The position numbers were made by a program, and so were the translations under genes. From IMG/VR virus record IMGVR_UViG_3300042891_001180: 64,000 bases of DNA; one strand, written 5' to 3'. The DNA is from a virus. Shown piece after piece: positions 1,259-37,300 of the stretch. A model generated the notes under the pieces. That model made no database searches. It was not told the origin of the DNA and was given only the letters and a program-made list of their open reading frames with translations. Every line of letters begins with the position of its first letter. The stretch's first letter is position 1.

Positions 1259-3064
1259 TCAGCCTTCACATGCCAAGCACACGTCCCCGTCAACTATGGC
1301 TTTCATATCTAACTCTTTAATTACTTCTCGTTCGATACGCTTTGATACTTTATCTGCTTTACCAATTTTCTCACTACGGCAATAGTACAAAGTCTTAAGA
1401 CCAGACTTCCATGCTAGGAAGTGCACAGCATGCAGATACTTAATATTAACATCGGGTCTAAAGAACAGGTTAAGGGACTGGGCTTGATCAATAAACTCTT
1501 GACGATCGGCGGCGTGCTGGACAAGCCATCTCTGGTCTATTTCCATAGACGTTTTAAATACATCTTTCTGCCATTGATCCATCCATTCCAAGTGTTGTAC
1601 TGAACCATCATTAGCGATAATAGATGACCAGATATCATTATAGTCATTTTGATTAATTACATCACCTTCTCCTGAAAGATGTTTTTCAATGACTCTATTC
1701 AACCATTTATTCTTTGTTAAATGAGACCCCGAAAGAGTGTCTTGACGATAGGCATTAGCACGGTATGGCTCGATACTAGGAGAAGTATTACCCATGATAA
1801 TTGAACTAGAAGCATTAGGAGCAATAGCCATAAGGTGGCTAAAGCGCTGCCCTGTCCCCACTGCGTCAAGTGCTTCTCCGCGAAGTCTTCCAAGTTGTTG
1901 ATTAGCTTCATCTAGTTGCTCCCTGATGTGTTTGAAAATCTGTCTATTTCTTCCGACGGCCATAGGCGATTCAAAAGGGATTCCGCATTGTTGGAGATAA
2001 GCATGAAAGCCCAGAGCACCGATGCCAATAGAGCGCTCACGTATGGCAGAGAACCTTGCACGCTCAACGGTGGTAGGGGCATTATCAATAAAATACTGAA
2101 GTACATTATCAAGCATTTCTGCAACATCACGAAGAAATACAGTATCATTTTTCCACTCATCATAGTACTCCAAGTTCAAAGACGATAAACAACATACCGC
2201 AGTTCTCTCCTTATCTGTAGGTAGAATAATTTCTGAACACAGATTAGATTGGCGAATCTTTAAACCAAGCTTCTTTTGAAACTCCGGCATCTTTCTGTTA
2301 CTTGTATCAATAAAATGCAGATATGGTTCCCCGGTCTGCATACGCATATCTAAAACTCGTTGCCAGAGTTCACGAGCAGATACTACCTCTCTTACTACCC
2401 CGTTATGTGGGTCGACCAGGTTCCAGGAATCATCTGCATCTTTATCAATCATACTACGTTCGACCAACTGCATGAACTCATCGGTAATATTAATACCGTG
2501 GTGTAAATTCTGGGTCCTCATATTAGGGTCTCCAGTTGATTTTCTCATCTCTAAAAATAAGAGAATATCAGGGTGGCTAATATCAAGGTATGCAGCATAA
2601 CTACCACGACGAGTCCTACCCTGTCGGTAAGCAAGACTTGAAGCATCATAAGTTCTAAGATGAGGCATAACCCCAACGCTCTTGTCATCTGATGCACGAA
2701 TTCCAATTCCAATTCCAACTCCTCCACCCAGCATGCTGAGCCAATTTACTTCTGATAATGTATTTACTAACCCGGCTGAAGAGTCATCCAGATAAGGAAG
2801 AAAACAACTGATAGGTAAACCCCGGGCAGAACGTCCGAACGAAAGAATCGGGGTGCTGTAACTAAGCCAATGCTTAGAAGAATAATCATATAAACGCTGG
2901 GCATGTGCTTCATCCGTTCCAAATGCTTTTGATACAAACGCAAATCTTTCTTGCGGCGACGTCTCATCATCACGCATATACGATTCTTTAAGACGCAATA
3001 CACCTAATGTATCAAACAAAGCGTCGCGAGAATAGTCTACCGTAATACCATGTATTTTACTCAT
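1259..3064 (-). CDS. nrdA: Ribonucleotide reductase class Ia alpha subunit (short, no obvious ATP-cone)
   Basis: PISCF, SNLCSEI catalytic motif, APNASSS, KTLYY, C-terminal CxxC (CLACEG). Confidence 0.97.
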   Translation of the reverse strand: MSKIHGITVDYSRDALFDTLGVLRLKESYMRDDETSPQERFAFVSKAFGTDEAHAQRLYDYSSKHWLSYSTPILSFGRSARGLPISCFLPYLDDSSAGLVNTLSEVNWLSMLGGGVGIGIGIRASDDKSVGVMPHLRTYDASSLAYRQGRTRRGSYAAYLDISHPDILLFLEMRKSTGDPNMRTQNLHHGINITDEFMQLVERSMIDKDADDSWNLVDPHNGVVREVVSARELWQRVLDMRMQTGEPYLHFIDTSNRKMPEFQKKLGLKIRQSNLCSEIILPTDKERTAVCCLSSLNLEYYDEWKNDTVFLRDVAEMLDNVLQYFIDNAPTTVERARFSAIRERSIGIGALGFHAYLQQCGIPFESPMAVGRNRQIFKHIREQLDEANQQLGRLRGEALDAVGTGQRFSHLMAIAPNASSSIIMGNTSPSIEPYRANAYRQDTLSGSHLTKNKWLNRVIEKHLSGEGDVINQNDYNDIWSSIIANDGSVQHLEWMDQWQKDVFKTSMEIDQRWLVQHAADRQEFIDQAQSLNLFFRPDVNIKYLHAVHFLAWKSGLKTLYYCRSEKIGKADKVSKRIEREVIKELDMKAIVDGDVCLACEG

Positions 3065-3803: not shown

Positions 3804-4817
3804 TTAGCATCTTTTCCATCCAATAAATTTCATTTTAGCAGTTAACCCGGTAAACGTATTATCTTTAATTATCTTCTTAACGTTATGACCGGCCATTACC
3901 ATTTCATTAATATCTTTTTCTGCTATTGTCTGCGGCCATAGAACTACATTATAACCTAGTTCTATATTTTTCTCAATCAACTTGCATACTTCTTTATTAC
4001 GAGGCTGATTATCAAATACCACAATTAGTTTATCTTTATCGAGACCGGTCTCATTAAGCTTTCCAAATGATGTACCGCCTACGGCAATTGCATTGTCTAA
4101 GAACAAGCTATCAATAGGACCCTCTACCACGTATATAGGTTTACTCTTATTTACAGAGTCTATACCGAATAGGAGCGGTACACCGTCCCTAACTTTGACA
4201 GTGAGGTAACGAAGCGCTTCACCACGTAAGGCTCTACAGGTAACCCCAGATAGTTGACCGTCGTTATCGTAAAAAGGGAGCACCAATCGGGGTTCTTCTC
4301 CTTGAATACTTTCTTTATATTTGTCATTTAATTGTACTATATCTTTAATATTATTAATAAAATAAAGCTGTTTTTGCTTTTCTTTAGGTATTTTTCTGCT
4401 ATTACAGAACAAAACCACCTCATGGTCTGCCGGTAGTGTATCTACTCTATCTAATAACCTATCTAGTAGTTTTTCGTTATCGTTTTTAAATACAGGCGCT
4501 TCAAACTTAAACTCAGGAACAACGTTTGCAGACTTATTATGCCCTTCACTGTACTTTTCTAACGAATACTGAGAGTACATTACCGCGTCTTGAGACTTAA
4601 GAAAGTTACCAAAACTTAACGATATGTCACAATTGTAACACTTATATCGTAAGTCGGTTTTATATGCGAAGAAGTAACCTCGCATTTTGCGTCTATTCTT
4701 TTGAGAATCACCGCATATTACGCACCTGCAGTTATAAGTATTATCCTTCTTCTTCTTAAACAGAGGAAGTCGGTTACTTATTAACATAAGATATTTTTGA
4801 TCAAGGAATACGGACAT
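3804..4817 (-). CDS. gp61: DNA primase (T4 gp61-like)
   Basis: Zn-binding CRCVICGDS...CYNC, TOPRIM VVEGPIDSLF, FDNQPRN, KDINEM. Confidence 0.96.
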   Translation of the reverse strand: MSVFLDQKYLMLISNRLPLFKKKKDNTYNCRCVICGDSQKNRRKMRGYFFAYKTDLRYKCYNCDISLSFGNFLKSQDAVMYSQYSLEKYSEGHNKSANVVPEFKFEAPVFKNDNEKLLDRLLDRVDTLPADHEVVLFCNSRKIPKEKQKQLYFINNIKDIVQLNDKYKESIQGEEPRLVLPFYDNDGQLSGVTCRALRGEALRYLTVKVRDGVPLLFGIDSVNKSKPIYVVEGPIDSLFLDNAIAVGGTSFGKLNETGLDKDKLIVVFDNQPRNKEVCKLIEKNIELGYNVVLWPQTIAEKDINEMVMAGHNVKKIIKDNTFTGLTAKMKFIGWKRC

Positions 4818-7033: not shown

Positions 7034-7831
7034 TTAATCAGGGAAGATTGTTTCTTCGTCATCACTTGTAATACCGTTCTTAGAAAGCGCAACTAATACT
7101 TCTTTCTTTTCACGAATCTGACCGTGAGCATCAGTATAGGTAATGTAGCTTACCCAACCGGTGTGGGATGCGTTAGAAGTAGAACCAGAACTAAAGTTAA
7201 TGGTTGCTGTTGCGTTGGTAGTTGGCTGTGATAGACCAGTCGTTGCAATAGTAGCTGTAGTATTAGCTTGAGCGGCCGCAGTGTAACCCTTACCAGGATT
7301 AGTAACCGTGATAGCAGTCAACACGTTGCTTGTAAAAGTCAGAGTAGCGGTTGCATTAGACTGGGGCTGTGAAAGTCCAGTAGTTGCAATTGTGATAGCG
7401 GTATTAGCAGTAATTGCAGTTGCATTTGCCAGTCTCTGATATCCTGCGCCAGTAGCATTAACTGAAATTGAACTAATTGAAGCTGTAATGATCTCTGCAG
7501 CATCTACACCGTAGACGTTCTCAATAGAAAGAACGTTACTTTGTCTAGAAACTGGGTACGTATTACTAGAAAGTACGTTTTTTGGACCTTGCTGAACAAA
7601 AACTACTTTAGAAGTACCAGCTGTTCGTGGTATTGTAGTCAATGTAAGAGCAGTATTAGAGGTAATATCAGCTACCTGATATTTACCTGAAACGCCAGAA
7701 ATAGTTAGATAATCTCCAGCGTTAAGATTTTGTAAAAAGTACGTTGATGCACCAACTAGGTTGGTATTTGCAATGTAATGTGTAACAGTACCTGCAATAG
7801 TTGTATTGTCTGATAGACCCCATGCGGACAT
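7034..7831 (-). CDS. Putative virion structural protein, Thr/Ala-rich with internal repeat
   Basis: Two copies of TIATTGLSQP..NATAT; ITVTNPGKGY motif; HTGWV...EVLVA C-terminus. Confidence 0.65.
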   Translation of the reverse strand: MSAWGLSDNTTIAGTVTHYIANTNLVGASTYFLQNLNAGDYLTISGVSGKYQVADITSNTALTLTTIPRTAGTSKVVFVQQGPKNVLSSNTYPVSRQSNVLSIENVYGVDAAEIITASISSISVNATGAGYQRLANATAITANTAITIATTGLSQPQSNATATLTFTSNVLTAITVTNPGKGYTAAAQANTTATIATTGLSQPTTNATATINFSSGSTSNASHTGWVSYITYTDAHGQIREKKEVLVALSKNGITSDDEETIFPD

Positions 7832-7891
7832 TTATGTCTCCTTGTTTTTCTTTTATTCCATGCCACCGTATAGGTGGCGCCCGTAATATAT

Positions 7892-9013
7892 TTAGGCTTC
7901 AGGACTTTGTGATTGGTCGCTAAACAATGTAATATCTTTGTTTTTAAATGCTTCATTAGCAACTAAAACTGCATCTTCATCAACGTATTTTGCGCGAGCA
8001 GCCTCAAGGTAATCGGCAAATGTATACTCTTCTTGCTCAACTTCTTCCTTAACACCACCTGCTTTAAGCATATCAATACGATCGCGATAGCCAGCGACCC
8101 CGGGTTTAATATCTTTAGCAGCTTTCTTAAGTGCAGGCGAAGCATTAGGAATGTGCTTCATAGTAGTCTTAGCTTGATCAGACATTGCTTCTTTAACTGA
8201 TTTTTTAGCTAAGTCCATTGCAGCACTATAGCCTGGTATGCTAGACATTTTTTTCATGCGAGCAGGATCCTTTGCAGTTTCAGTTCCAGCTGCAGCTAAT
8301 CTTTGCTGGCGCGCCATCATGTCTTTCTTTGATTCACTTTTAGCTTCATCTAAATCTGCATCTTCTTTAACTGGCTTTCTAGTATAGACTGTACCTGTAG
8401 AGATTTTCTTAGAATCAAAACCAGCTGTCTCACCTGGTTTTTTAGGTATTTGACTTTGATAATTTTTATAGTCAAATGGACTAACAGGCTTCTTCTTCTC
8501 TTCTTCTTGTACAGAGTCTTCCTTCATAGGCTTAGGCATCTTACCATCTTTTTTGCCAGCCTTAATTAATGAAATAGCAATAGCAGCTTGTTGAGCAGCT
8601 TTACCAGCTAGCTCTTGTATCTGTTCATCAGTATCTTCTTTTGTTAGACGTTTTACAGCTTTATTTAAACCTGTTTCTCTATTAGTAGCTTTTCTAACAC
8701 TATCTGAATCAGATTCATATTCTTCTGGATCTTCCCCGTGTTGATATGATAGGTCTCTCTGGTCACCAACATTCTTTTTAATATAAGACCCGAGAGTTTT
8801 TTTACTTAATTCATTAACCATCTCAGCTTCTTCTTTAGTAATCTTCCCGTTACTGTCCTTCTTCATTGCACGAAGCTTTTTAAAGTCATGAGCGGTAATC
8901 TCATCCTTCTCTGGCTCATGCACATCAATCTTCTGTTGATTGGGGTGGAGGTTAGCCTCCATCACTGCGCGAATGTCATCTTGTAATTTTTGTGAAATAG
9001 ATTTCATGTCCAT
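7892..9013 (-). CDS. Putative internal head protein with many gp21-type cleavage sites
   Basis: Highly charged; repeated VKED, VKEA, VKEE, LDEA, VNEL junctions. Confidence 0.6.
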   Translation of the reverse strand: MDMKSISQKLQDDIRAVMEANLHPNQQKIDVHEPEKDEITAHDFKKLRAMKKDSNGKITKEEAEMVNELSKKTLGSYIKKNVGDQRDLSYQHGEDPEEYESDSDSVRKATNRETGLNKAVKRLTKEDTDEQIQELAGKAAQQAAIAISLIKAGKKDGKMPKPMKEDSVQEEEKKKPVSPFDYKNYQSQIPKKPGETAGFDSKKISTGTVYTRKPVKEDADLDEAKSESKKDMMARQQRLAAAGTETAKDPARMKKMSSIPGYSAAMDLAKKSVKEAMSDQAKTTMKHIPNASPALKKAAKDIKPGVAGYRDRIDMLKAGGVKEEVEQEEYTFADYLEAARAKYVDEDAVLVANEAFKNKDITLFSDQSQSPEA

Positions 9014-9048
9014 TTTGTTTCCTTTGGTTTCGTATACTTATAAGTTAA

Positions 9049-9897
9049 TTAGCAGTTCCATTTTCTAAGAGCTTTATTAATCCTAGAATCCGGGTCTCTT
9101 GCAGTCTTTGCAGATGTTAGTCTTTTCTTCATACCACCCATGCGCGCACAAAAAGATTTTCTTCTGTTAGCCGCTTTACTACCTGGTTTTAACTTAGATG
9201 GTTTGGTCGTTACAGCCATTTGTAATTTAGAGCCTGGGTTCTCTCTACGGTAAGCTGCAATACCTTTTGCATTCAGACCACCTTCAGGGTTCTTACCTTC
9301 TTTACGCTGCCAGGCTGCAACTTCAACTAACTCTTCATCTGGTATTGATTCTAGATCTTCCCAGATTAATTCAGAGTCAACGTTATTATCTTTTGCAATA
9401 TCTTCTATTACATCTTCAATAAGATCAAATAGTTCTTCTGGTAATAGTTCTTCTTTTATTCTCCAACTACCACCACGTTTTTTGTACCACTTTGCTGCAA
9501 ACCCATTGGCGTAGGCTGAAGGGTAGACATCGAATTTTTGTCTGGCCAGAGACTTAGCTCTCGACCAGAGTTCGGGGTTGGTAGGTTCATTCTTCTCTAC
9601 CAATAGACCTTCTCTTAAATTAGAAAAAGTATTTAATGATTCTGATTTTACCATTACTGGGGCGCCTCCTTTACCAGATCGATCTGCAACCGGGTCTTCT
9701 CTTCTTTTTCTTCTTACTGCGGCTGCCCTATCATCCTTCGACATAGAACGGGCCTTGGCAAGTGGAAGACACTTGGGCTTCCCCTCCCCGGGCTCTCTTG
9801 CACAGTCACCTTTTATATTACCCTTGGTATCCATTCTCACCCAATTACCTTCGGGGTGAGTTTTACTGAACCAATTTCTTAAATTTTCTAGTACCAT
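9049..9897 (-). CDS. Modular basic protein (DUF5872-like plus DUF6321-like modules), putative internal head protein
   Basis: LRNWF...GKPKCLP, FDVYPSAYAN and AAWQRKEGKNPEGGLN...ALRKWNC modules separated by xxE sites. Confidence 0.65.
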   Translation of the reverse strand: MVLENLRNWFSKTHPEGNWVRMDTKGNIKGDCAREPGEGKPKCLPLAKARSMSKDDRAAAVRRKRREDPVADRSGKGGAPVMVKSESLNTFSNLREGLLVEKNEPTNPELWSRAKSLARQKFDVYPSAYANGFAAKWYKKRGGSWRIKEELLPEELFDLIEDVIEDIAKDNNVDSELIWEDLESIPDEELVEVAAWQRKEGKNPEGGLNAKGIAAYRRENPGSKLQMAVTTKPSKLKPGSKAANRRKSFCARMGGMKKRLTSAKTARDPDSRINKALRKWNC

Positions 9898-9922
9898 TAA
9901 GCAAGACCACTAAGTAGGTTTT

Positions 9923-10768
9923 TCACTTACCACCCCTATAATGGGCCAGTCTCTTTTGCTCAATTGAACGCATCTTAGGTACCATTCTGGTAGCAATACT
10001 TGCCTGAATGCTTTTCATACCTTTAACTTGTTGTTCAATTCTATCTTTTTCGGAAGCAGAAAGAGCAGACTTATCCCTACCCCTTAACAATCTTTGATAA
10101 ATTGCACGACGAGCGGCTAGTTGTGCACGCTTCTGGAGTATCTGGGGTGTAGAGGCTCTTCTTAACTTAAGCCCCTTAGCAGTATTTCTTCTAGACCTAC
10201 CTCTTGCAAAACTCTGACTTCTTTTAAGTCTAGATGTTGCAGATATTTTTTCGTCTAATTGCCCTGTCTCTTCTTCAATTAAATCTTCTTCTGAGTATAG
10301 ATCAACAATATCTTCCCACTTAAGACTATCAACCATTTCATTGATATCGTCTTCGCTAATCTCTTCATTTTTTTCTGCAATGAAGTTTGCAAAAGAAGTA
10401 ACCACAGATTCATGTTTACTTGAAACTTTTTTAGATTCATCCATGCCACTAAAGTCTGCAGCAGGCAAATGGGCGTAAGGCATGTCTCCTAAATTATTAT
10501 CATCATCACCAAAAAGTTTACTCATTGTTTCAACATGGCTGGTCATATACTCTTGGTGTTGATCTAAAACACCCAGGGACTGCAATGCCTCATGCGTACG
10601 GGACATGTGATACGTAAAATCATGTATCATCGTTGGGGTAGCTTTATTAGCAGCTACCGCCTGCTTTTCAACACCTAAATAGGCATCAGTAGATTCTAAT
10701 GCTGTCTTTAATAGCTCGTGCTGTATATTTAAATCGTTTATCATTTTAGTATTGACCTTAACATCCAT
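9923..10768 (-). CDS. Hypothetical protein, acidic middle and Arg/Lys-rich C-terminus
   Basis: ORF track; LDEK junction before the basic module. Confidence 0.65.
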   Translation of the reverse strand: MDVKVNTKMINDLNIQHELLKTALESTDAYLGVEKQAVAANKATPTMIHDFTYHMSRTHEALQSLGVLDQHQEYMTSHVETMSKLFGDDDNNLGDMPYAHLPAADFSGMDESKKVSSKHESVVTSFANFIAEKNEEISEDDINEMVDSLKWEDIVDLYSEEDLIEEETGQLDEKISATSRLKRSQSFARGRSRRNTAKGLKLRRASTPQILQKRAQLAARRAIYQRLLRGRDKSALSASEKDRIEQQVKGMKSIQASIATRMVPKMRSIEQKRLAHYRGGK

Positions 10769-11169
10769 GCATGCTTTTCGTGAGCCTGTATTCTATCTTG
10801 AAGAAAATTAGCAATGCCTACTTCACCTGTTGTATCTGCAGTAGTATATGCGGTAAGTAAGGATGCTCTTAAAATATTATTTTCCTGAAGTAACCTGGTC
10901 ATCATAGTCTTTCCATCCGGAACATCATCTGTTTCTTCAATAGATGTTAGTTCTTTCAATCTTGTAAGGGTACCAGGAGCATATGAATCAAGTGTTCTAA
11001 TTAATTCAGCGAATGTATCAACCGATGCAAATACTTCTTGATAAAGATTCTGAAGGAAGTCATGGTATTGAGGGAAGTTAGGTCCTTCAACATTCCAATG
11101 ATAGTAATGTGCCTTTAGGTAAAACGTAAATGCATCCGCATGCACTTTTTTTAATTCATCTATTAACAT
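10741..11169 (-). CDS. dps: Dps-family mini-ferritin
   Basis: KAHYYHWNVEGPNF..HDFL, D..AE ferroxidase residues, HEKHAWML. Confidence 0.93.
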   Translation of the reverse strand: MLIDELKKVHADAFTFYLKAHYYHWNVEGPNFPQYHDFLQNLYQEVFASVDTFAELIRTLDSYAPGTLTRLKELTSIEETDDVPDGKTMMTRLLQENNILRASLLTAYTTADTTGEVGIANFLQDRIQAHEKHAWMLRSILK

Positions 11170-12368
11170 TATAACCCTGTGTATTGTCTAAACTGCATTT
11201 TACGGAGTGTAGATGGCTTAGAGTTAATGCCTGCCACCACATCTTGAACTGCCTTTGATGGCATATTATGACCGGCAGGTTCCCCGATGTGCTCACCTGC
11301 CCTAGCAGTTTCAATTAGTTTCTTAAATTCTTTATATGCACTGGGACATATATCCAGGTTTTTAGTCTGTATACCATCGAACTCTAGTTGATCTTGATCA
11401 ACAGCCTCAAATAATGCCCGCTTTTGATTAGCAGTCATTAATAGAAATGGTAATCTGGTTGCTTCTAATTGCATAGGTTCTACCTCTACGGACTCTTTAA
11501 CTTTGTTATCTGGTACAACCTTGTAAGAGCCACCTGTACCATATTTTGCTGGAATAAAAACTGTCTTTTTAGGACCTGACTGAGCGCTTACTTTAACTCT
11601 CTTCATCATTGACTGAAACTTTTCACCGTAGTCGGCTTCTTTGGCTTCAGCCTTAACTTTACTTTCCCCAGGGGTAATGCGCTTCATCTCTTTAGTTCCT
11701 TCTGGGGTACCCCATTCGTATTTAGAAATCTTTACTTCACCTTGTGAACCAGGTGCTACAGCCTCATGAATACCCATGTGTTGTCTTACATCGTGGTACA
11801 AAGCATCTTTGTGTTCTGGTTTCATCTTGGAAGGTAAAGCGGCATGAAATTTCTTCTTTCTACCTGCCGCCGCATGCTCGCGCATCTTAGTACCGGAGAT
11901 ACCAGAAGTGCCTTCTGCATCAGGATCTCTTTCGCCCGACGAATGCACTTTAATAGATTTAAATTTATAGTTACCGTGTGCGCTCTTTACGCCATTATAC
12001 TTATGAAGTAACTTATGGTACTCTTCTACTCTATCGGAGCCTGCAACAACGTGCAAATGCTTAACACCTTGGCTTGCCATTGCAGCTGCATGATGTAAAA
12101 TAGTGGGGTGCTCTTTAGAAGCCGCTTCAATATTAGTACCCGGAAATGCATGCTGTGCATGCTTTACCTTAACATCGGCAGGTAACGGGTTCTTAGATTT
12201 ATCTTGAGAATGAGATAGAACTACCTTGTGAACGGCATTATGTTCTTTAGCAACTTCATGAACTTTATTAATAACTTGCTCGTGCCCAGTAGTGGGTGGA
12301 TTCATACGACCGTACGCAAGTACTCCGTGTTTTTCCGGTGCTTCTGTTAAGTAGTCTATAAAGTCCAT
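11169..12368 (-). CDS. HIGH-superfamily nucleotidyltransferase (phage 'cytidyltransferase') with C-terminal extension
   Basis: GRMNPPTTGH, KNPL, VAGSDR, SGTKMR motifs. Confidence 0.85.
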   Translation of the reverse strand: MDFIDYLTEAPEKHGVLAYGRMNPPTTGHEQVINKVHEVAKEHNAVHKVVLSHSQDKSKNPLPADVKVKHAQHAFPGTNIEAASKEHPTILHHAAAMASQGVKHLHVVAGSDRVEEYHKLLHKYNGVKSAHGNYKFKSIKVHSSGERDPDAEGTSGISGTKMREHAAAGRKKKFHAALPSKMKPEHKDALYHDVRQHMGIHEAVAPGSQGEVKISKYEWGTPEGTKEMKRITPGESKVKAEAKEADYGEKFQSMMKRVKVSAQSGPKKTVFIPAKYGTGGSYKVVPDNKVKESVEVEPMQLEATRLPFLLMTANQKRALFEAVDQDQLEFDGIQTKNLDICPSAYKEFKKLIETARAGEHIGEPAGHNMPSKAVQDVVAGINSKPSTLRKMQFRQYTGL

Positions 12369-12390
12369 GTGTATTTAATTAGTTAACCGT

Positions 12391-12675
12391 TTATTTATCT
12401 TTCTTTTTACCTAGTGACATATTGATTCTCCAATGCGCTAATTGCTTTTCTCTGGGTGTTGCAGAGCTAGAAGATCTAACTTTCTTCAATTGAGTAATAG
12501 ATTTACCCTTAAGACCGTGTCTGGCCATGTCACCTTTATCTTGAGGGTTACGACCATCTCGGAAGTTTTCAGATACCTTAACGCAGTTGGGTACCATTCT
12601 GTTACCCTTCTTCTTCATGCCTTGTTGAGTCCAGCCATCCCAACATTTTTCTCTTAAATCTTTAAAAGTTTTCAT
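12391..12675 (-). CDS. Small basic protein with CW.G....G.K.K....VPNCV module
   Basis: MKTFKDLRE leader; module recurrent in T4-like aquatic phages. Confidence 0.7.
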   Translation of the reverse strand: MKTFKDLREKCWDGWTQQGMKKKGNRMVPNCVKVSENFRDGRNPQDKGDMARHGLKGKSITQLKKVRSSSSATPREKQLAHWRINMSLGKKKDK

Positions 12676-12724
12676 GGATTTTTAGTTGCCTTGAGTGTAT
12701 AATCTTTATGTGGGCGGTTGAGAA

Positions 12725-13942
12725 TTACCTTGGTCTAGCAGCAAAATTTGCTCTACTAAACTCTGCTCTATCTACAAACTTAGTCGGTCTGTTATTTCTG
12801 ATAACGACAAAGCCTTCGGGTTTAGCTGGCTTACCACCGGTGATCTTAGTTGAACCTGGTGCAGGTATCGAATGTTCAAACTTAGGTTTAGCAGACAACG
12901 AATGAACCAATTGATCTTTGGCAGCCTGTAAGTGATGATGCATATCTAGAATCTTCTGAAACTTATCAGAATGTTTATTTACATGGGCTAGGTCTTCTTG
13001 CATCTTATCGGTCTTAGTACCTACAGCCTTAGCCGTCTTCACTTTAGCTATACCCTTAAGATGTTGATCTCTTAAGTGCTCGGTATAGCCCTGAACTGAT
13101 GGCTTAGTATTCTCTCTCACAGTCTTATTAATATAAGTTTTCAAATGTTCTTGATGGCCTTCAATAGCACCGTAATGTTTTTTATCGGTACTATTGAAAG
13201 CTTTTCTAGCTTGTTCAACATGGTGTTCATATGTATGTGCCTGATTTGTATTAAGATCGGCTTTGTGAACATCGTCAACAGTACTTATAACATGAACATC
13301 AGAGTGTTTAGGGAAGTGAGAAAGATCGGCGCCGTATTGTGCTTTCATTCCTGCCAATGTATTACCTTCGTATGCAGTATGAACGGCTACACCAAATTTA
13401 GAACTGGCAACTTTTTTACCTTCAGCCGAGCTATGAGATGTTGAATAGGTAAGGGTATTAGGTTTGAAGTGATACTTACCACCTTCATTTACAACATCTC
13501 CATGAGGGTTATCTTTTGACTTGATACCCGAGTGCATTACATCACCTTGATAGACACCTGTCTTAGGAGTTACTTTAGGTAGGTGTATAAGAGCTTGTTT
13601 TAACTTCTGAACTAAACCAGGTGCATGCCCGTGATTCTTTTCAACGTCCTCTGGTGTATAGTTTAACTTAGGGTCTGCATTAAACGCCGATTTGGTAGAG
13701 ACAAAAAATGCTCCCGTCTCTGGGTGATGACCAAACACGATAGAAGGGGACCCGTCGTACTTAGTTGCAATCTTAGTACTGTTCTTTTTCCCACCGATCT
13801 GGTCTTTAACGTCTTCTAAGTTATGATAGGCATGGGCAAAGCCTTCCATACCAGAATTAATGACATGGTCTTCTGCATGCTCTAAGTGTTTGAGCTTTTC
13901 TTCTGAAGCAGCTTCAGCGAGATATAGGTTAAATTGCATCAT
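12725..13942 (-). CDS. DUF6267-like protein with ligase/capping-type nucleotidyltransferase motifs
   Basis: HLEHAED, KYDG (motif I), YQGD (III), EGFVV (IV), KFV (V), EFSRANF. Confidence 0.7.
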   Translation of the reverse strand: MMQFNLYLAEAASEEKLKHLEHAEDHVINSGMEGFAHAYHNLEDVKDQIGGKKNSTKIATKYDGSPSIVFGHHPETGAFFVSTKSAFNADPKLNYTPEDVEKNHGHAPGLVQKLKQALIHLPKVTPKTGVYQGDVMHSGIKSKDNPHGDVVNEGGKYHFKPNTLTYSTSHSSAEGKKVASSKFGVAVHTAYEGNTLAGMKAQYGADLSHFPKHSDVHVISTVDDVHKADLNTNQAHTYEHHVEQARKAFNSTDKKHYGAIEGHQEHLKTYINKTVRENTKPSVQGYTEHLRDQHLKGIAKVKTAKAVGTKTDKMQEDLAHVNKHSDKFQKILDMHHHLQAAKDQLVHSLSAKPKFEHSIPAPGSTKITGGKPAKPEGFVVIRNNRPTKFVDRAEFSRANFAARPR

Positions 13943-13946
13943 ACTT

Positions 13947-15008
13947 TTATAGTGTACTTTTAGCAGTACCAGTTTTTTTCATTTTAAATCCAATTCTATT
14001 ATTTACAGGATAGGGGGTACTACTTGGAGATTGAAAAATAAACTCACCATCAGAAAAAGTCTTAACGGTATATTTTAAATTACTTCCTGCTTTATCTAAA
14101 TAAATTTGATTAATAGTTAAAGTGTTAGCCGCTTTGTTAAGTAAGTCTTTAGTATTATTTTTATCTGTATTAAGCCACTTAATTAATTCAGCCGTTATCG
14201 GGTAATGTAATAACCCATATCGTTTTCTAGTATAACCTTTATCTAGAATACGCTTTGTAGTACTTATGTCAATAGTGTTATTATAGCCTGACGCTTCATA
14301 ATAGTCTTTAGTTATATCTCTAAACAAATCATAACCTCCTGCATTTTCCACTGCAGTTTCAAGATGTTTTTCAGTTGGTATACCGCTGACATAACCTGTA
14401 TTAAGTTTTTTTTCTTTTAAAAGCGTAAGTAACTTTTTATAGCCTGGGAGGTCAAGATACTCAGCTGCCTGAAGAGGTCCGAGATATAAGGCATTAGGTT
14501 GTTGTTTACCTAAATGGAAAAGCACCCACGTAGCTTGTTGATATTTGTTATCTAAAGTGCGGTTAGCAACCATTGTTTCAATGATTGGCATAAGAGATAC
14601 AATAGATGGCTTACCACCTTCTCCTGCTTTTGCAGAATATTTTTCGTCTAACCCATCTTTAGTAACCATGTAATAATCAATAAGCTTTTCATTACCAGTA
14701 GGAAACTTAACTGCTTTGTATCTATTGCTTTCTTTTTTTAGTACGTAAGCTGCACCAGATACTTCACCAAAATCTTTTAGAATAATATTAAATTCTTGAT
14801 CAGTCAACTGACCCTTATCTTGAGAAAACAACCCCTTACCGCTAGCAGATTGATCGTAAATATCAATACACGTACTGTATACTGCACTATCTAATTTCAT
14901 ATTCTTAAGCTTAGTTTTAGTGGTACGTGTTAACTCAGGTAATGAAAATTCAGTACCGTCAGCTAAACCAAAGTAACTAGGAATAAGTTGTTTATCTTTT
15001 ACACGCAT
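13947..15008 (-). CDS. Hypothetical protein, possible PD-(D/E)xK nuclease fold
   Basis: DFGE...FP..N..LIDY...YSAK spacing; late-type promoter GATAAATA at 15037-15044. Confidence 0.45.
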   Translation of the reverse strand: MRVKDKQLIPSYFGLADGTEFSLPELTRTTKTKLKNMKLDSAVYSTCIDIYDQSASGKGLFSQDKGQLTDQEFNIILKDFGEVSGAAYVLKKESNRYKAVKFPTGNEKLIDYYMVTKDGLDEKYSAKAGEGGKPSIVSLMPIIETMVANRTLDNKYQQATWVLFHLGKQQPNALYLGPLQAAEYLDLPGYKKLLTLLKEKKLNTGYVSGIPTEKHLETAVENAGGYDLFRDITKDYYEASGYNNTIDISTTKRILDKGYTRKRYGLLHYPITAELIKWLNTDKNNTKDLLNKAANTLTINQIYLDKAGSNLKYTVKTFSDGEFIFQSPSSTPYPVNNRIGFKMKKTGTAKSTL

Positions 15009-15048
15009 GGAGTTAGAGATTATAGTTTTAATAGTATATTTATCTAAT

Positions 15049-15071
15049 AAAAAACCCCAGCAGAACTGGGG
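15049..15071 (-). terminator. Intrinsic terminator
   Basis: CCCCAG-TTCTG-CTGGGG followed by T6 on minus strand. Confidence 0.8.
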
Positions 15072-15091
15072 CTTGATAAAGTAAAAAAACT

Positions 15092-15463
15092 TTAAATAGT
15101 ACTATCGTGATAGTCAACTAATCTCTTATCAGTTTTATCAGATATTTTAATACCATGATCTTCCATTTTTGATCTCATATCCGAATAGTTACTTTCAGTA
15201 GCGTTACGCCCATGGACACCTAGACTTGTAGTCTTACCGGTAGAAGAATTATGGTGAACATATTTAATGCCTCTGTCCTTCTCTGCAGCATAGATGTGAT
15301 GGGGACCTTCTGATACAATGTGGCCTACGTCAGGGTGCTTGGCATTGACACGTTTGGTAACCTCATCATCTTCTTCATTAAGAGCTTGACTTACTTTAGA
15401 AGACGTATCACGTGATAAGAATTCTAAAGCCGCGTCAATTAATGATGTTTTCTTTTGTTCCAT
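15092..15463 (-). CDS. Putative internal protein with shared targeting leader
   Basis: N-terminus MEQKKTSLIDAALEFLSR...LNEE shared with neighbour. Confidence 0.7.
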   Translation of the reverse strand: MEQKKTSLIDAALEFLSRDTSSKVSQALNEEDDEVTKRVNAKHPDVGHIVSEGPHHIYAAEKDRGIKYVHHNSSTGKTTSLGVHGRNATESNYSDMRSKMEDHGIKISDKTDKRLVDYHDSTI

Positions 15464-15475
15464 ACTAACTCCAAG

Positions 15476-15925
15476 TTATTTTACTTTGTGCCCAGCAGCC
15501 TCAACGTCCGCAGGGTGAGCGTAGAAATGTGTCGCATTCTTTTTTAACGTATCTTGAGTTGAAGGACTACGATCGCTCGATTTATTACTGCCCTTAAAAG
15601 TACCCATAGAGCTGGAAGTGTTACCCTTGCTTCCCCCTGATCGAGCTTGCAGTTGATCTAGTGTTTCTCTCTTGCCTCTATACCGTGTACGTACACCAGG
15701 ATACTGTTTCTTGAACTCTGCATGATGTTCGATTGGCATCTTGTTCATAGGATGCTTTTTACCACCAAGAGTAATGGTAGTGTTTTTTGCATCCATAGCT
15801 TCAAAAATCATATCTTTTATGAACTGTAATTCCTCATCATCAGCTTCATTGAGCGGGCTTGTAGATGTACCTCGTGATAGAAATTCTACTGCTGACTCGA
15901 TAAGATTTGTTTTCTTTTGTTCCAT
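15476..15925 (-). CDS. Putative internal protein with shared targeting leader
   Basis: N-terminus MEQKKTNLIESAVEFLSR...LNEA shared with neighbour. Confidence 0.7.
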   Translation of the reverse strand: MEQKKTNLIESAVEFLSRGTSTSPLNEADDEELQFIKDMIFEAMDAKNTTITLGGKKHPMNKMPIEHHAEFKKQYPGVRTRYRGKRETLDQLQARSGGSKGNTSSSMGTFKGSNKSSDRSPSTQDTLKKNATHFYAHPADVEAAGHKVK

Positions 15926-15951
15926 ACTAACTCCGATTGAATATTATGGAT

Positions 15952-15959
15952 TATTTATA
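15952..15959 (-). promoter_or_regulatory. T4-type late promoter TATAAATA
   Basis: Exact consensus 26 nt upstream of ATG at 15925. Confidence 0.75.
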
Positions 15960-15964
15960 TAGAA

Positions 15965-16162
15965 TTAGATCTTTAAGTAGTGATTAATGATCTTATCTTT
16001 AATCATATCAGGAATACTAAGATATGGCCATTGCAATTCGAACGGGCAACCTGGGCTATCCCATTTTCGATTAACTACAAAGTTACGATATTGATCGATA
16101 TGCTTCTTATCGTCAGGGCTAAATCGAACGCGTTGACGTTGTACTTGTGCTAGAACATTCAT
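15965..16162 (-). CDS. Hypothetical protein
   Basis: GCPFELQWPYLSIPDM motif; coupled to upstream ORF. Confidence 0.65.
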   Translation of the reverse strand: MNVLAQVQRQRVRFSPDDKKHIDQYRNFVVNRKWDSPGCPFELQWPYLSIPDMIKDKIINHYLKI

Positions 16163-18406: not shown

Positions 18407-19801
18407 TTATACCTTTATGCCGGAGAAATCCTTTGTCTTAAACATTTTAGACATACCAAAGTTGCTGTTCTCGTTCTCATCTTGACCGGAATCAGCTAAG
18501 TTACTTTGAGCAATATCCTCTAAGTCATACAGTCGCATCTTCGCACGATCAATACCAATCATAAACCGCTTATATAATGTTGGATCATTATACCGGTTTT
18601 TTAACTGCTTGACCATGATCTGATTGAGACCTTCGAGCTCTTCTGTACTTATTAAGGCAAACATAAAATCTGCCGTGGCGGGTAAACCGAAGGATTCGGA
18701 CGTATCGGTCAGCTCCACATCTGTATTCGAGAACCCCGAACGCGTAGTTTGTGTAGCGGAGACGATAGGTAAATTAAATTCTACAGCTAGACCTCTCAAC
18801 TCTTCAGCAATGGCTTTGATATATGTATAAGAATTGACACCGCCACCGGGCTTGAATCTAGAGGATGCGCAGATGTTCAAGTAATCGATAAAAATAACAT
18901 CTGGCTTAAATGAACGTTTTAGCGATAATTCGTTCAATAAACCCTTAAAGTGACCAACGTGAGCAGAAGCGGTAGGGTATTCTTTGATAATTAACTTACC
19001 ATGAGACTTACCGTTAATCTTACTGATTCTACCTTCGAACATCTGCTTAGGCAAGTTCTTTAACTGATCGATTTCAACGTTTAGTAAGTTAGCATCAACA
19101 CGCTCGGCAATCCTCTCCTCCGCCATCTCCATCGTAATATAGAGAACGTTCTTTCCTAGAGCAAGATTCGCAGCAGCCATGTGACACATGAAAAGAGACT
19201 TACCCACACCAGTACCAGCCAGAGCAATATTAAGCGTCTTGTTTGGTAGGCCTCCATTTGTGATTTTATTGAATAACGAAAGATCAAACGGAAGGCGAGA
19301 CTCCACCCGATTATAAAAATCAAACCGATCAGAAGAATCTTCGAAATAATCGTGACCCACGGAAGAATCAAAGCAGACACCTAGCGCCTCCTGTAACAGT
19401 GATGGTATGCCATCTTTACTAAAGTTTTTATCTCTACCTTCCATGATACCAATCGATTGAAGAATGGCATTATAAACGGCTTTATCTTTACAAAACTTTT
19501 CAGTCTCATCCAACAGCCAATCTTGATTCGGCTTTTCAAATATATCTAACTCTTTTACTAACTCACTCGTCTCTTTAAAAGTACCCTCAGGTAAATTAGA
19601 GTTTTGTAATGTAATACCCAGCGCCTCGGTAGTTGGAGGTTTATTATACTTAACTACAAATTCGCTAATTATCTTATAAACAGTTCTTTCACTCTCATCC
19701 GTAAAGTACTCCGACTTTATAAACGGAAGAACCTTTCGCATGTAGTCTTCATTGTGGACTAGATTCCTTAGAATCGTTGTTTCCAGTCTGCTTGAACTCA
19801 T
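18407..19801 (-). CDS. gp41: Replicative DNA helicase (T4 gp41-like)
   Basis: Walker A AGTGVGKS, IIKEYPT, IDYLNIC, SATQTTR, SESFGLPATAD. Confidence 0.97.
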   Translation of the reverse strand: MSSSRLETTILRNLVHNEDYMRKVLPFIKSEYFTDESERTVYKIISEFVVKYNKPPTTEALGITLQNSNLPEGTFKETSELVKELDIFEKPNQDWLLDETEKFCKDKAVYNAILQSIGIMEGRDKNFSKDGIPSLLQEALGVCFDSSVGHDYFEDSSDRFDFYNRVESRLPFDLSLFNKITNGGLPNKTLNIALAGTGVGKSLFMCHMAAANLALGKNVLYITMEMAEERIAERVDANLLNVEIDQLKNLPKQMFEGRISKINGKSHGKLIIKEYPTASAHVGHFKGLLNELSLKRSFKPDVIFIDYLNICASSRFKPGGGVNSYTYIKAIAEELRGLAVEFNLPIVSATQTTRSGFSNTDVELTDTSESFGLPATADFMFALISTEELEGLNQIMVKQLKNRYNDPTLYKRFMIGIDRAKMRLYDLEDIAQSNLADSGQDENENSNFGMSKMFKTKDFSGIKV

Positions 19802-20057
19802 TAATTGCTTCTCTCAAAATATCATTTATAATTACTTCAATCACTGCTTTGAAGGTATCACTCTTTATGTCTTCATTGGTTATTAATTCTGGCTTGTGAA
19901 CTACGTGATAGTCAAGAGCAAGTTCGTTACTACCTTCGTCAGGCCAATCTAATTTTTCAATCTGAACAGTTACACCATTATACTCCCCGTCGATAATTTC
20001 AAAGCCCCAATCCTTTTCACCAACGAACCAAGGTTTAAATAAATCATTCCTCAACAT
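19749..20057 (-). CDS. Conserved acidic protein between uvsX and gp41 (gp40 position)
   Basis: Synteny; likely start MLRNDLF. Confidence 0.55.
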   Translation of the reverse strand: MLRNDLFKPWFVGEKDWGFEIIDGEYNGVTVQIEKLDWPDEGSNELALDYHVVHKPELITNEDIKSDTFKAVIEVIINDILREAINEFKQTGNNDSKESSPQ

Positions 20058-21108
20058 CAGCATACTCCTTGGTAATATCCTCATCACTCAAGATAGCACC
20101 GTTAGCAACTTGATAGGTGGTCTTTACCCATTCCTGGAATGAAGGCGACTGAAGGATAGGTAACCAGAACTCCTTAGTATCGCATTGTGCAGATCTAAAC
20201 TTCTGCTCTTCTACTTCACCGGTATCTTTATTAACGCGAGAATACCAACCGTTAGAAGGTTTAATAACGTGACCGGATTCTAAAGCCATATCCAGTAAAC
20301 CAGACCAACGACTGATACCACCATCGTGACGAACGGTAACAGGGATCTTAGATTTCTCTCTTACATAACGAGACTTCTCAACGTTAATAATAAAGTTATA
20401 ACCTACAACCTCGGTACCGTCTTTTTCCTGCTGACGACCAAGGATAAAGATATTATCAGCGGCATAATAAGAACCAGTACCACCACCTACCACATCTTTA
20501 GCATACAACTCCATTGTCTTGTAAGTATGGTTAACTACAATCATAGGAATATCTTTAAGAGACAGATGTGGAGTAATCATACGGAACAAAGACTTAATCT
20601 GCTTTGCACGTGACATATCGGCTACCGACTTACCTTCTAAAGCATCTTCGACTTCTTTCTTAGATGCCAAGTTACCAATAGAGTCAATAATAATAATCAG
20701 ATGATCACTTCTTTCAACGCCCTCTAACTGAGTCATTACATCGAACTTTAACTGCTCGATATTAGTCAGAGGCGTATGAATAACGCGCTTAGAATCAATA
20801 CCGAAAGAGTCAAAGTATGACTGAGGAGTACCGAACTCAGAATCATAAAAGAGTAAAGCCGCATCGGGATACTTATCCAGATACGACTTCGCCATCAACA
20901 AAGAGAAAGCAGTCTTAAAGTGCTTCGAAGGTCCAGCCCACATCGTTAAACCAGGCGTTAGACCTCCGTCTAATTTACCTGACAATGCAATATTAATTGC
21001 AGGAATAGAAGTAGGAATCATATCCTTCTTCTGAAAGAATTTCGAATCGGCTAGAATAGCCGTATCCTTAATCGTAGAGTTCTTCTTAATTTTATCAAGT
21101 ATAGACAT
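20044..21108 (-). CDS. uvsX: RecA-like recombinase UvsX
   Basis: AGPSKHFKT, FYDSEFG, DSIGNLASKKE, ADMSRAK. Confidence 0.97.
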   Translation of the reverse strand: MSILDKIKKNSTIKDTAILADSKFFQKKDMIPTSIPAINIALSGKLDGGLTPGLTMWAGPSKHFKTAFSLLMAKSYLDKYPDAALLFYDSEFGTPQSYFDSFGIDSKRVIHTPLTNIEQLKFDVMTQLEGVERSDHLIIIIDSIGNLASKKEVEDALEGKSVADMSRAKQIKSLFRMITPHLSLKDIPMIVVNHTYKTMELYAKDVVGGGTGSYYAADNIFILGRQQEKDGTEVVGYNFIINVEKSRYVREKSKIPVTVRHDGGISRWSGLLDMALESGHVIKPSNGWYSRVNKDTGEVEEQKFRSAQCDTKEFWLPILQSPSFQEWVKTTYQVANGAILSDEDITKEYADVEE

Positions 21109-21165: not shown

Positions 21166-21606
21166 TTACTGGCACCAGCTTTGCTTAGCGTCACCGTAAT
21201 ATTCACGTGCTAACCCGTTTTGAATTAGTCCTGCCCGAACACTCTGACCGTTAACTAAGATATCTCCAAGTACCCTACCACCAAATTTGTCCCATGCGTA
21301 CAATGTAACTTGTATCTTACCGCCTTGGGCGATTAACTGAGAAGTCCATTTACTGGCTAACTGTGCTCTTTGATCTTCTTGTGGACACTGTGCTCTATGT
21401 CCTTTTTCTGGTGTATCTACTCCGAAGATACGAACTGCTAGTTCTGGTTTAAGTGGAGCAGGCAAGAACGGTGCTGCAATAACAATAGTATCACCATCAC
21501 TTACACGTAAAACTTGTGTATCATAGGTAGCTGAGTTCTTGGGCATCTTTTGAGCAAATGCCTGGGTAACTAATAGCAGCGAGAGAATTGCAATATACTT
21601 TTTCAT
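21166..21606 (-). CDS. Staphylococcal-nuclease (SNase)-like nuclease with signal peptide
   Basis: Sec signal ending AFA; DGDT, VRIFGVDTPE, DKFGGRVLG, GLA motifs. Confidence 0.9.
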   Translation of the reverse strand: MKKYIAILSLLLVTQAFAQKMPKNSATYDTQVLRVSDGDTIVIAAPFLPAPLKPELAVRIFGVDTPEKGHRAQCPQEDQRAQLASKWTSQLIAQGGKIQVTLYAWDKFGGRVLGDILVNGQSVRAGLIQNGLAREYYGDAKQSWCQ

Positions 21607-36229: not shown

Positions 36230-36516
36230 CAGAATACCATCCTAATTAAACCGACTGTGTCGATTGTGGTGAGTAGTATATAGTTGGCGAGCATTCCAAA
36301 TGATTTCCTAGTGTAAGCAGCCCAAGCATACAAAGCGCAGCCAGCGATCCAAATAGGATACAAAACAAGAAGCGGTGGAGTAGGGACTGTAGCGGCCATA
36401 GTGATGCTACAACCAATACTAATGCCCCAAGCAAGCAACTCGATAAAAAAGCGTACAGGGTGAGAATTAAAATCATCTTTTATCCATTCAAATGTCGGTC
36501 TTAGTAGGTCGTTCAA
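36229..36516 (-). CDS. Small three-TM membrane protein
   Basis: Three hydrophobic segments. Confidence 0.7.
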   Translation of the reverse strand: MNDLLRPTFEWIKDDFNSHPVRFFIELLAWGISIGCSITMAATVPTPPLLVLYPIWIAGCALYAWAAYTRKSFGMLANYILLTTIDTVGLIRMVF

Positions 36517-37300
36517 TGCCTAGCTCCTTACGAATTTTTGTAGCAGAAATAGAATGAGTAGCCTCATCGAATACTTCTTGTTCAATTTTATATCCAACAT
36601 CTCTGCCATATGTGATATTTACAATGTTAGGAACTACTTGAATCTCGTATTGACCTTGATATAGCATATCAAGATCTCGTTTAATATAATTTTTAACTTG
36701 ATCAATAGCGAATGGATTAGACCCTTGCCATCCTTGACAATCTCTAATCTGAATAATCACCTGACCGGTCTTTGCAATAGATCTTTCAAACAAAGCGCGG
36801 TGTCCGGCATGCCAAGGTTGCCAACGACCAAGCATTTGAACCGTTTCTTTTTTCCAATCAAATATCGGGCGACGACGATTATCTAAAATGTGAGCAGCAA
36901 TAAACTCTCCCCACCTCTCACCACTTTGTTCATTAATCCTAAAGTCATAAACATCTGGTGGTATGAATACTTTGTTTGTATCCTCAAAACGACCTTTATC
37001 GATTGTATCAACCCAGATAGTCCAATCAGCTTTAAAGTTATTACGCATCTCAACAAGAGGAGCAACAAAATCACAAATTACAAAATCACAATCATAACTA
37101 TCAGCCAACTCTCTCATTCGTAAGCTTTGACGAATACGACCTTCATGACTGAAGTCCCAATCATTATACTTCTTGCGTACATCATCGGCATTAAGCCACA
37201 TTACCGTTTTACGCTCATGCTCTAGATGTTCTAAAATGTGTTGTGCAAGATATGTCTTACCTGAGCCAGGTAGCCCCATTACTAAAATACGCTGTGTCAT
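36488..37300 (-). CDS. Adenylylsulfate-kinase-like P-loop domain fused to HIGH nucleotidyltransferase domain
   Basis: GLPGSGKT, NADDVR, DFS..GRIRQ; C-terminal GRWQPWHAGH, NPF, ISATKIR. Confidence 0.8.
   Translation of the reverse strand: MTQRILVMGLPGSGKTYLAQHILEHLEHERKTVMWLNADDVRKKYNDWDFSHEGRIRQSLRMRELADSYDCDFVICDFVAPLVEMRNNFKADWTIWVDTIDKGRFEDTNKVFIPPDVYDFRINEQSGERWGEFIAAHILDNRRRPIFDWKKETVQMLGRWQPWHAGHRALFERSIAKTGQVIIQIRDCQGWQGSNPFAIDQVKNYIKRDLDMLYQGQYEIQVVPNIVNITYGRDVGYKIEQEVFDEATHSISATKIRKELGIERPTKTDI

Follow-up and report, generated by a model that had tools for sequence, protein, structure and literature searches.

A predicted ligase-fold nucleotidyltransferase family is coupled to a HIGH-type transferase and bears a T4-type head-targeting leader in a freshwater T4-like phage

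In bacteriophage T4, internal proteins attach to the scaffolding core of the head by capsid-targeting sequences, which the prohead protease gp21 removes by cutting after a glutamate (PMC3012670, PMC5694885). In the T4 record, the ipII and ipIII products begin MKTYQEFIAEA and the ipI product begins MKTFKEF. Here we describe two genes whose products appear to carry the same kind of address in IMG/VR virus record IMGVR_UViG_3300042891_001180, of which we analysed one stretch of 64,000 nucleotides (hereafter the window; ~39% G+C). Its source is an uncultured freshwater T4-like (Kyanoviridae-type) myophage. The two genes belong to a cassette that lies entirely on the minus strand. The first encodes a 405-amino-acid (aa) member of the family DUF6267 (12725-13942), predicted to be a lysine nucleotidyltransferase of the RNA-ligase fold, and the second a 399-aa HIGH-type nucleotidyltransferase (11169-12368); a 142-aa, ferritin-like Dps gene (10741-11169) follows. 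The coordinates of these three open reading frames (ORFs) are exactly those of the initial annotation, which had proposed that the proteins form a virion-delivered set of enzymes. On sequence and model evidence, what is new here is a ligase-fold family that is coupled to a HIGH-type transferase and bears a T4-type head-targeting address. The reading toward which we lean, if only slightly, is that the cassette encodes cargo: a tagged pair of enzymes that would be packaged, cleaved, ejected and then act jointly on polynucleotide ends.

Both enzymes start with a leader that had been likened to the T4 sequence, and the comparison held up when we extended it to their families. In the 405-aa protein, codons 1-10 (13913-13942, minus strand) read MMQFNLYLAE and are followed by A11, with a predicted prohead-protease cut after E10, and in the transferase, codons 1-9 (12342-12368, minus strand) form a capsid-targeting-like propeptide, MDFIDYLTE, followed by A10. 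The shared form, M-x-x-F-x-x-[FY]-[LI]-x-E and then Ala, is like that of T4 IPII and IPIII (MKTYQEFIAE, then A). Using the pattern M-x(0-4)-hydrophobic-x-x-hydrophobic-[LIVMFT]-x-E, we found leaders on 60 of 113 DUF6267 representatives and on 89 of 104 relatives of the transferase; the same pattern fits 2 of 118 members of the adjacent upstream family, to which a 353-aa protein of the cassette belongs. Of 166 leader glutamates, 105 precede Ala and 24 precede Ser. Within the window, four of the 224 ORFs of at least 50 aa match the pattern, two of them being the 405-aa and 399-aa proteins. Leaderless DUF6267 members mostly begin right at the HLEH motif of the domain itself. Of 20 proteins in which a DUF6267 domain is fused to the transferase (see below), those that have a leader carry it at their N-terminus, and only one has a leader-like motif in the linker before the transferase domain. 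Because the fusions have a single N-terminal leader, the decapeptide is best read as an N-terminal address rather than as a part of either fold, and since both enzymes of the window bear this T4-type head-loading tag, both are probably injected with the DNA.

The likeness to T4 IPI, IPII, IPIII and Alt extends beyond the decapeptide with its Glu and Ala. Like the T4 internal proteins, the window enzymes have late-type promoters, cluster with small, very basic proteins and belong to sets in which the payload behind a constant leader varies among relatives. The small basic protein is a 94-aa product encoded between the ligase-like and transferase genes (12391-12675, minus strand), which has 18% Lys, two Cys, a CWDGW...VPNC module and the N-terminus MKTFKDLRE (compare MKTFKEF of T4 IPI). 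Its NF.DGRNPQDKGDMARHGLKGKS motif recurs in two related lake contigs (69% and 58% identity), L008 (9274-9477) and L009 (9653-10273), and from its sequence it looks like a candidate small internal protein. The T4 payloads are small inhibitors and an ADP-ribosyltransferase, whereas the two enzymes here belong to the nucleotidyltransferase class and are ~400 aa each; their packaging and cleavage in this phage are predictions.

The 405-aa protein is a full-length member of DUF6267 (Pfam PF19782, E 4e-93), a family with 2004 matches in a search of 1.84 billion cluster representatives and tblastn matches in 466 phage records, nearly all of them cyanomyophages; a literature search found no mention of it. 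The four motifs of covalent nucleotidyltransferases that the initial annotation had read in this protein are present in the order I, III, IV and V: KYDG at residues 61-64 (motif I), YQGD at 131-134 (motif III-like, Q132-G-D134), EGFVV at 376-380 (motif IV, E376-G) and KFV at 388-390 (motif V, K388...R392), preceded by HLEH at 19-22. In an alignment of 77 relatives with 31-57% identity, conservation reaches 90% or more at each of K61, D63, G64, Q132, G133, D134, E376, G377, K388 and R392, and the N-terminal H19-L-x-H22-x-E24 is also nearly invariant. Inteins favour catalytic sites, and the metagenomic representative P0243 (583 aa), which also bears a leader (MKPFSEYLLTE), carries an intein (Cys1...His-Asn, then Ser) that splits motif I between KIDG and SPSIVYG. 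As judged from these sequences, the catalytic motifs of DUF6267 are intact, with a putative covalent K61-nucleotide chemistry.

The AlphaFold2 model of the 405-aa protein has a predicted local distance difference test score (pLDDT) of 95.2 and a predicted template-modelling score of 0.91, residues 1-20 alone being uncertain (low pLDDT). Foldseek returned no match at an E-value of 0.001 or better for this model, so the assignment of a ligase fold rests on a Foldseek-independent aligner, with which we searched 48,161 PDB representative chains. RNA or tRNA ligases filled nine of the ten best rows, and the remaining one was a putative ATP-dependent DNA ligase. NgrRnl (5cot) reached Z 9.3 (root-mean-square deviation (rmsd) 3.7, 183 residues aligned) and REL1 (1xdn) Z 8.9 (192 aligned), followed by T4 Rnl2 (1s68) at 7.8, Trl1 at 7.7 and archaeal Rnl3 at 7.5; T4 Rnl1 (6.9) and DNA ligases (5.2-6.9) occupied lower rows. 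When Foldseek's best 1000 chains were re-aligned, all 50 of the rows listed were ligases. Thirteen NgrRnl entries scored Z 9.1-9.5 (rmsd 3.6, 183 residues) over the whole transferase domain (143-339), ahead of REL1 (8.8), Trl1 (8.0), Rnl2 (7.8), Rnl1 (7.7) and DNA ligases (at most 6.9). A Z of 7-8 from this aligner is common even for unrelated models; we nevertheless consider the match credible because the list is homogeneous, the full domain is covered and the motifs are in register. In the model, K61 is the last residue of strand 57-61, and strands 130-137, 377-382 and 385-389 carry QGD, EGFVV and TKF, respectively. Taken together, the confident model and the uniformly ligase matches at the top of the independent search bear out the ligase fold that had been suspected from the motifs, and the core is predicted to be the adenylyltransferase domain of polynucleotide ligases, closest to the nick-sealing RNA ligases.

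The closest described enzymes are thus the RNA ligases of the Rnl5/Rnl2 clade (Naegleria gruberi NgrRnl, Trypanosoma brucei REL1 and T4 Rnl2), with which the 405-aa protein shares the whole-domain fold (Z 9.5, 8.8 and 7.8; 180-194 residues aligned). With Rnl2 it also shares the order of an x-L-E-x strand (HLEH/SLEN), KxDG/KxHG, an acidic motif III, an EG motif IV and the Lys of motif V. Against a ligase assignment stand four differences from known ligases and their profiles. The acidic residue of motif III is Asp (D134) where ligases have Glu; motif V is K388-x-x-x-R392 where ligases have K-x-K; no ligase family was linked to DUF6267 by sequence profiles (Pfam, phmmer and hmmsearch against the PDB, hhalign against T4 Rnl1 and Rnl2); and the Foldseek E-values for the model are weak (0.07 or higher), even though the top rows are DNA and RNA ligases. 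The phmmer and profile hmmsearch comparisons with PDB sequences yielded chance helical matches only. In hhalign, a local alignment of 16-17 columns that is not significant (probability <1%) laid E376-G377...K388 on the EGYV..K of the T4 ligases, pairing PEGFVV...K388 with IEGYVA...K240 of Rnl1 and AEGYVL of Rnl2. Further differences from the clade are a helical insert of ~120 residues (~232-349) between motifs IIIa and IV, the capsid-targeting-like propeptide and an obligate association or fusion with a HIGH-type transferase. The model holds only the transferase core and this insert, with no OB domain and no appended nick-sensing domain of the Rnl2 C-terminal or Rnl5 N-terminal type. Because of the differences in motifs III and V, the insert, the domains and the profiles, we regard DUF6267 as a new family within the ligase fold and not as a member of Rnl2 or Rnl5. 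We give polynucleotide end-joining chemistry for DUF6267 an even chance.

The 399-aa partner contains the HIGH-family motifs of the NMNAT/PPAT type that had been attributed to it. It matches Pfam CTP_transf_like (PF01467) at 26.7 bits against a cut-off of 21 and a PHROGs cytidyltransferase at E 7e-59, and Foldseek aligned its modelled PPAT/NMNAT-fold domain (residues 11-200, pLDDT ~90) with PPAT, NadD and NMNAT at E 6e-6 to 3e-4 and probability 1.0. Its motifs are T26-T-G-H29 and G156-I-S-G-T-K-M-R163; across 43 relatives, T26-T-G-H29 and S158...R163 vary little or not at all. The Rossmann-like HIGH fold and the TxGH and ISxTxxR motifs are those of PPAT (CoaD), NadD and NMNAT, from which the protein differs in its low identity (12-21%), in substrate-binding parts that are not assignable and in an extra C-terminal region of 200 residues. 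By fold, NMNAT ranks no higher than PPAT, the match to an NMNAT PHROG (E 6.5e-4) lacks a significant stretch, and phmmer against the PDB gave no match. On the modelled structure, the fold class does not separate NMNAT from PPAT or discriminate among substrates, and we rate any particular substrate far lower than packaging or end joining. The C-terminal half is conserved in sequence and has low pLDDT, and neither a relative nor a structural-atlas lead was found for it. Where the confident catalytic domain ends, E202 (11763-11765, minus strand) is invariant in the 43 relatives within an [IVLT]-x-E-[AVIS] motif, and is a candidate internal prohead-protease site that would free the catalytic domain from the C-terminal half.

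The genes for the two enzymes are neighbours or fused in relatives, which bears out the co-occurrence across related phages expected at the outset. Among the 150 DUF6267 cluster representatives listed, at least 22 are fused to the transferase in one order or the other. Twenty have DUF6267 first, with linkers of 10-40 residues, and P0122 and P0266 have the reverse order. The first half of phrog_455 (764 columns) matches DUF6267 and its second half the transferase, and S-PM2d138 is a 591-aa protein with an N-terminal DUF6267 domain. In S-SZBM1, the DUF6267 gene (141) and the transferase gene (140) are adjacent, with 140 directly downstream. Other genes are inserted between the two in L008 and L009, which each retain the pair of transferase and Dps genes as well as the pair of DUF6267 gene and its upstream neighbour. 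Further fusion partners of DUF6267 are LysM and a Pol-beta-type nucleotidyltransferase. In Pelagibacter phage HTVC008M, a Zeta-toxin/AAA_33 P-loop kinase (AGE60463, L003:7724-8386; Pfam E 3e-13 and 4e-11) is encoded between the two genes and is a possible polynucleotide or small-molecule kinase partner, without a counterpart in the window's cluster. From this coupling we infer that the two enzymes work together. Elsewhere in the window and far from the cassette, a 275-aa protein (36488-37315, minus strand) with the N-terminal Walker A sequence VMGLPGSGKTY is a possible kinase.

One role, raised by the initial annotation, is that of an anti-defence kit in which the injected ligase would reseal tRNAs cut by anticodon nucleases and an NMNAT-like enzyme would rebuild the nicotinamide adenine dinucleotide (NAD+) lost to NADase defences. 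The DUF6267 fold is indeed closest to that of RNA ligases, the fold class of the transferase includes NMNAT and NadD along with the weak NMNAT PHROG match, and the HTVC008M kinase belongs to a class that includes polynucleotide kinases. The authors of the S-SCSM1 and S-CREM2 virion proteomes also call the transferase homologue NMNAT-like. However, end-healing enzymes (kinase, phosphatase or cyclic phosphodiesterase) are missing from the window's cluster, NMNAT does no better than PPAT in the fold comparison, no Nampt-type source of nicotinamide mononucleotide (NMN) was seen near the cassette, and there were no meaningful matches to PADLOC models. The fusion of the two enzymes, moreover, points to one joint reaction and not to two separate rescues. 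We therefore find the anti-defence kit improbable.

Published virion proteomes bear directly on packaging. Homologues of the transferase were detected in virions of four cyanomyophages: S-SM1, as T4-GC190 "cytitidyltransferase", a cyanophage core gene (PMC3037559); S-SZBM1, as S-SZBM1_140 (PMC9146016); S-SCSM1, as ORF91, which the authors call NMNAT (PMC9602691); and S-CREM2, as gp154 (PMC10665884). The window transferase is homologous to this virion protein in the N-terminal domain (33-48% identity over residues ~13-205) and lies at the same locus, although the C-terminal halves differ. The two virion-found transferases whose N-termini we read are leader-bearing, beginning MRFRQFIIEA (S-SZBM1_140) and MKNFSSFLTEA (S-CREM2 gp154), and neither a targeting peptide nor a ligase-fold partner is mentioned in the available parts of the four papers. 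The virion delivery proposed for the enzymes accordingly has support for the transferase, through its homologues in four virions, but not for DUF6267, which has not been reported in a virion and whose marine homologues are leaderless. The DUF6267 proteins of S-SZBM1 and S-CREM2 begin MAKNTHLEHLED and MNKATKPLTHIEHPEDE, respectively, and are absent from the virion proteome lists of these phages; DUF6267 was likewise not found in the proteomics table of Sullivan et al. Absence of leaderless proteins from virion lists is weak negative evidence and fits a leader that serves as an address label. About half of the DUF6267 representatives lack a leader, including those of all four cultured marine phages read (S-PM2, S-SZBM1, HTVC008M and S-CREM2), and packaging is therefore not intrinsic to the family.

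If the enzymes were not packaged at all, the shared decapeptide would be an amphipathic helix with another role, such as oligomerisation, membrane or replisome targeting or a translation initiation context, and the enzymes would be late auxiliary metabolic proteins that co-purify with virions. Such an account draws on the caution of the S-CREM2 authors that abundant late proteins may co-purify (PMC10665884), and on the low transferase counts of 2-3 peptides in two reports (PMC10665884, PMC9146016). It has to contend with a leader that resembles those of T4 IPII and IPIII at each residue, closing with Glu and then Ala, that is lost from the downstream domain in fusions, that is almost absent from the adjacent 353-aa family (2/118) and that is present on transferases which were found in virions, as well as with the agreement of four independent virion proteomes on the transferase homologue. 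We judge it very unlikely, and consider the packaging of both enzymes rather probable.

The cassette also has promoter boxes of a late type. A GATAAATA box, one mismatch from the T4 late box, occurs on the minus strand at 15037-15044, 28 nucleotides upstream of the 353-aa gene, and again at 12392-12399, 23 nucleotides before the ATG of the 399-aa gene, where it overlaps the stop of the 94-aa ORF. The latter is the late-type promoter that had been pointed out in the initial annotation. The former directly follows a strong intrinsic-terminator-like hairpin (15074-15052, minus strand) with a 10-base-pair stem and a T run, which ends an upstream small-protein cassette. Six of the 12 minus-strand NATAAATA sites precede the start of an ORF of 80 or more aa by 17-28 nucleotides, for which the chance expectation is 1.6% of positions (binomial P 1.5e-8). 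In L008 and L009, [T/G]ATAAATA occupies the two corresponding positions, the box upstream of the transferase gene being TATAAATA in the former and GATAAATA in the latter. Exact TATAAATA is under-represented in the window (4 found versus 9.5 expected from shuffles), and all three minus-strand copies (15959, 18411 and 43038) lie 17-26 nucleotides upstream of gene starts, a distribution that fits selection keeping the late-promoter box just where it is used. These signals suggest that the cassette is transcribed late. Since no comparable minus-strand terminator was predicted from the cassette down to position 7800, the transcription unit may run through the Dps gene and three more genes. Contigs from three lake metatranscriptomes, derived from related strains (90-99% alike), cover parts of 7800-16000 and are uninformative on starts, timing and strand; none covers 14102-15197.

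The small-protein cassette upstream of the hairpin consists of two adjacent genes (15092-15925, minus strand) for proteins of 123 and 149 aa, which have the common N-terminus MEQKKT.LI..A.EFLSR and then diverge; the pair is flanked by TATAAATA (15959-15952) and the terminator at 15074-15052. The three genes after Dps (7892-10768, minus strand) encode Lys/Glu-rich proteins, with no terminator predicted in between, and one of these has DUF6321 and DUF5872 modules, which long phage polyproteins (phrog_727, phrog_3477) also carry at their ends.

The position of the cassette in the genome raises a different alternative. The genes for gp43 DNA polymerase (21603-24113), UvsX (20044-21108) and gp41 helicase (18407-19801) lie upstream of the cassette, those for gp61 primase (3804-4817) and NrdA (1259-3064) downstream, and the cassette thus stands between the helicase and primase genes. 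Kyanoviridae-type T4-like phages have their replication module arranged in this way, and the same order is found in S-PM2, Methylophilales phage Melnitz, HTVC008M and S-SZBM1. A DUF6267 gene located after gp43, uvsX and gp41 and before gp61 and nrdA could encode chiefly a cytoplasmic replication or repair ligase, the nick-sealer that is otherwise missing in Kyanoviridae-type phages, with the leader a later add-on or serving another purpose. S-PM2, Melnitz, HTVC008M and S-SZBM1 have DUF6267 and no match to PF01068 (ATP-dependent DNA ligase), PF01653 (NAD+-dependent) or PF09414 (Rnl2-type RNA ligase), and S-CREM2, searched for PF01068, has DUF6267 and no match; T4 shows the reverse pattern, with ligase Pfam matches and no DUF6267. 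The T4 ligase gene product gp30 is listed among non-cyanophage core genes (PMC5349666, PMC2993671), the family occurs nearly exclusively in cyanomyophages among the 466 records noted above, and its marine forms are leaderless and absent from published virion lists. A strict "gp30 or DUF6267" complementarity was rejected, given that Stenotrophomonas phage DLP6 is reported with gp30 (PMC5349666) and a Stenotrophomonas phage record matches DUF6267, and the same finding counts against the cytoplasmic role. So do the nearest structures, which are RNA and not DNA ligases, and the lack of an OB domain or any other recognised nick-sensing domain. In this phage, moreover, the DUF6267 gene follows a terminator and a late-type promoter and bears a leader, and a cytoplasmic ligase leaves the tight coupling to the HIGH-type transferase unexplained. 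A chiefly cytoplasmic role is a minority possibility in our estimation, and one that can coexist with packaging.

Returning to the packaged, jointly acting enzyme pair, the steps may be pictured as follows. The propeptide would dock both enzymes on the prohead scaffolding core, and a gp21-type prohead protease would cleave after the leader glutamates (E10 and E9) and probably cut the transferase again at its domain boundary, marked by the invariant [IVL]-x-E202. The mature enzymes would remain in the DNA-filled head and be ejected into the next host with the genome. There, the ligase-like enzyme would charge K61 with a nucleotide and seal or modify broken polynucleotide ends, and the partner transferase would make or recycle its nucleotide cofactor. 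Packaging, cleavage, ejection, substrates and this division of labour are all predictions from the evidence above.

Two further proteins of the cassette differ from the pair. The 142-aa protein is a genuine Dps by sequence (Pfam Ferritin, E 2e-25; 30 PDB matches in the Dps family, the best being 8ff9 at E 4e-27 over residues 4-141). It is homologous to this family over its full length, with the ferroxidase-type His, His, Asp and Glu present (H24, H36, D51 and E55, as read from the alignment), and it differs from typical Dps in being phage-encoded, in its translational coupling to the transferase and in lacking a Lys-rich N-terminal tail. The ATG of Dps and the stop codon of the transferase share 1 nucleotide. 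The initial annotation had included Dps in the virion kit; its identity stands, but no leader was found on Dps in the window, L008 or L009, and because it is leaderless in all three genomes we do not count it as cargo. Predicted to share the transcript of the transferase, to which it is coupled in translation, Dps most likely serves the infected cell through iron sequestration and DNA protection.

The 353-aa conserved protein (13947-15008, minus strand), encoded 4 nucleotides upstream of the ligase-like gene, has invariant or nearly invariant D79, G81, E82, D111, S125 and K127 and no Pfam, PHROG or PDB-profile assignment. Weak structural leads to restriction-endonuclease-like folds (template-modelling scores of 0.26-0.31) did not confirm a nuclease. 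Melnitz_15 and HTVC008M AGE60460, compared by position and length only, occupy the same position upstream of DUF6267 and are of similar length. The 353-aa protein itself is leaderless, and Melnitz_15 begins MQGFKTFLSEA. The long fusions P0191 and P0257 have N-terminal extensions whose homology to the 353-aa protein could not be shown.

The 3.2-kilobase region of the three initially annotated genes had no megablast match among 50,697 phage records. The segment 10741-15100 was nearly whole (over half of sampled words) in at least 21 lake-water metagenome runs from 21 studies, and on this basis the phage lineage is widespread in lakes.

A bolder possibility joins several of these threads: DUF6267 would be an unrecognised polynucleotide ligase family that fills the gap in Kyanoviridae-type phages, and its HIGH-type partner an NMN (or similar) adenylyltransferase that regenerates the nucleotide donor, the two forming a self-recharging sealing machine that freshwater lineages preload into the capsid. 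We regard this as unlikely on present evidence. If it were true, the preloaded ligase would seal breaks in the incoming genome or in host RNA before phage gene expression.

Cyanomyophages, in which DUF6267 is a core gene, rank among the sea's most abundant viruses, and a ligase fold gives the family a testable activity. A recognisable targeting peptide may explain why a "cytidylyltransferase" recurs in virion proteomes, and the predicted fold makes DNA sealing in phages that lack gp30 a live question again. Should packaging be confirmed, the repertoire of enzymes injected by T4-like phages would widen from ADP-ribosyltransferases and nuclease inhibitors to nucleotidyltransferases of nucleic acids and cofactors.

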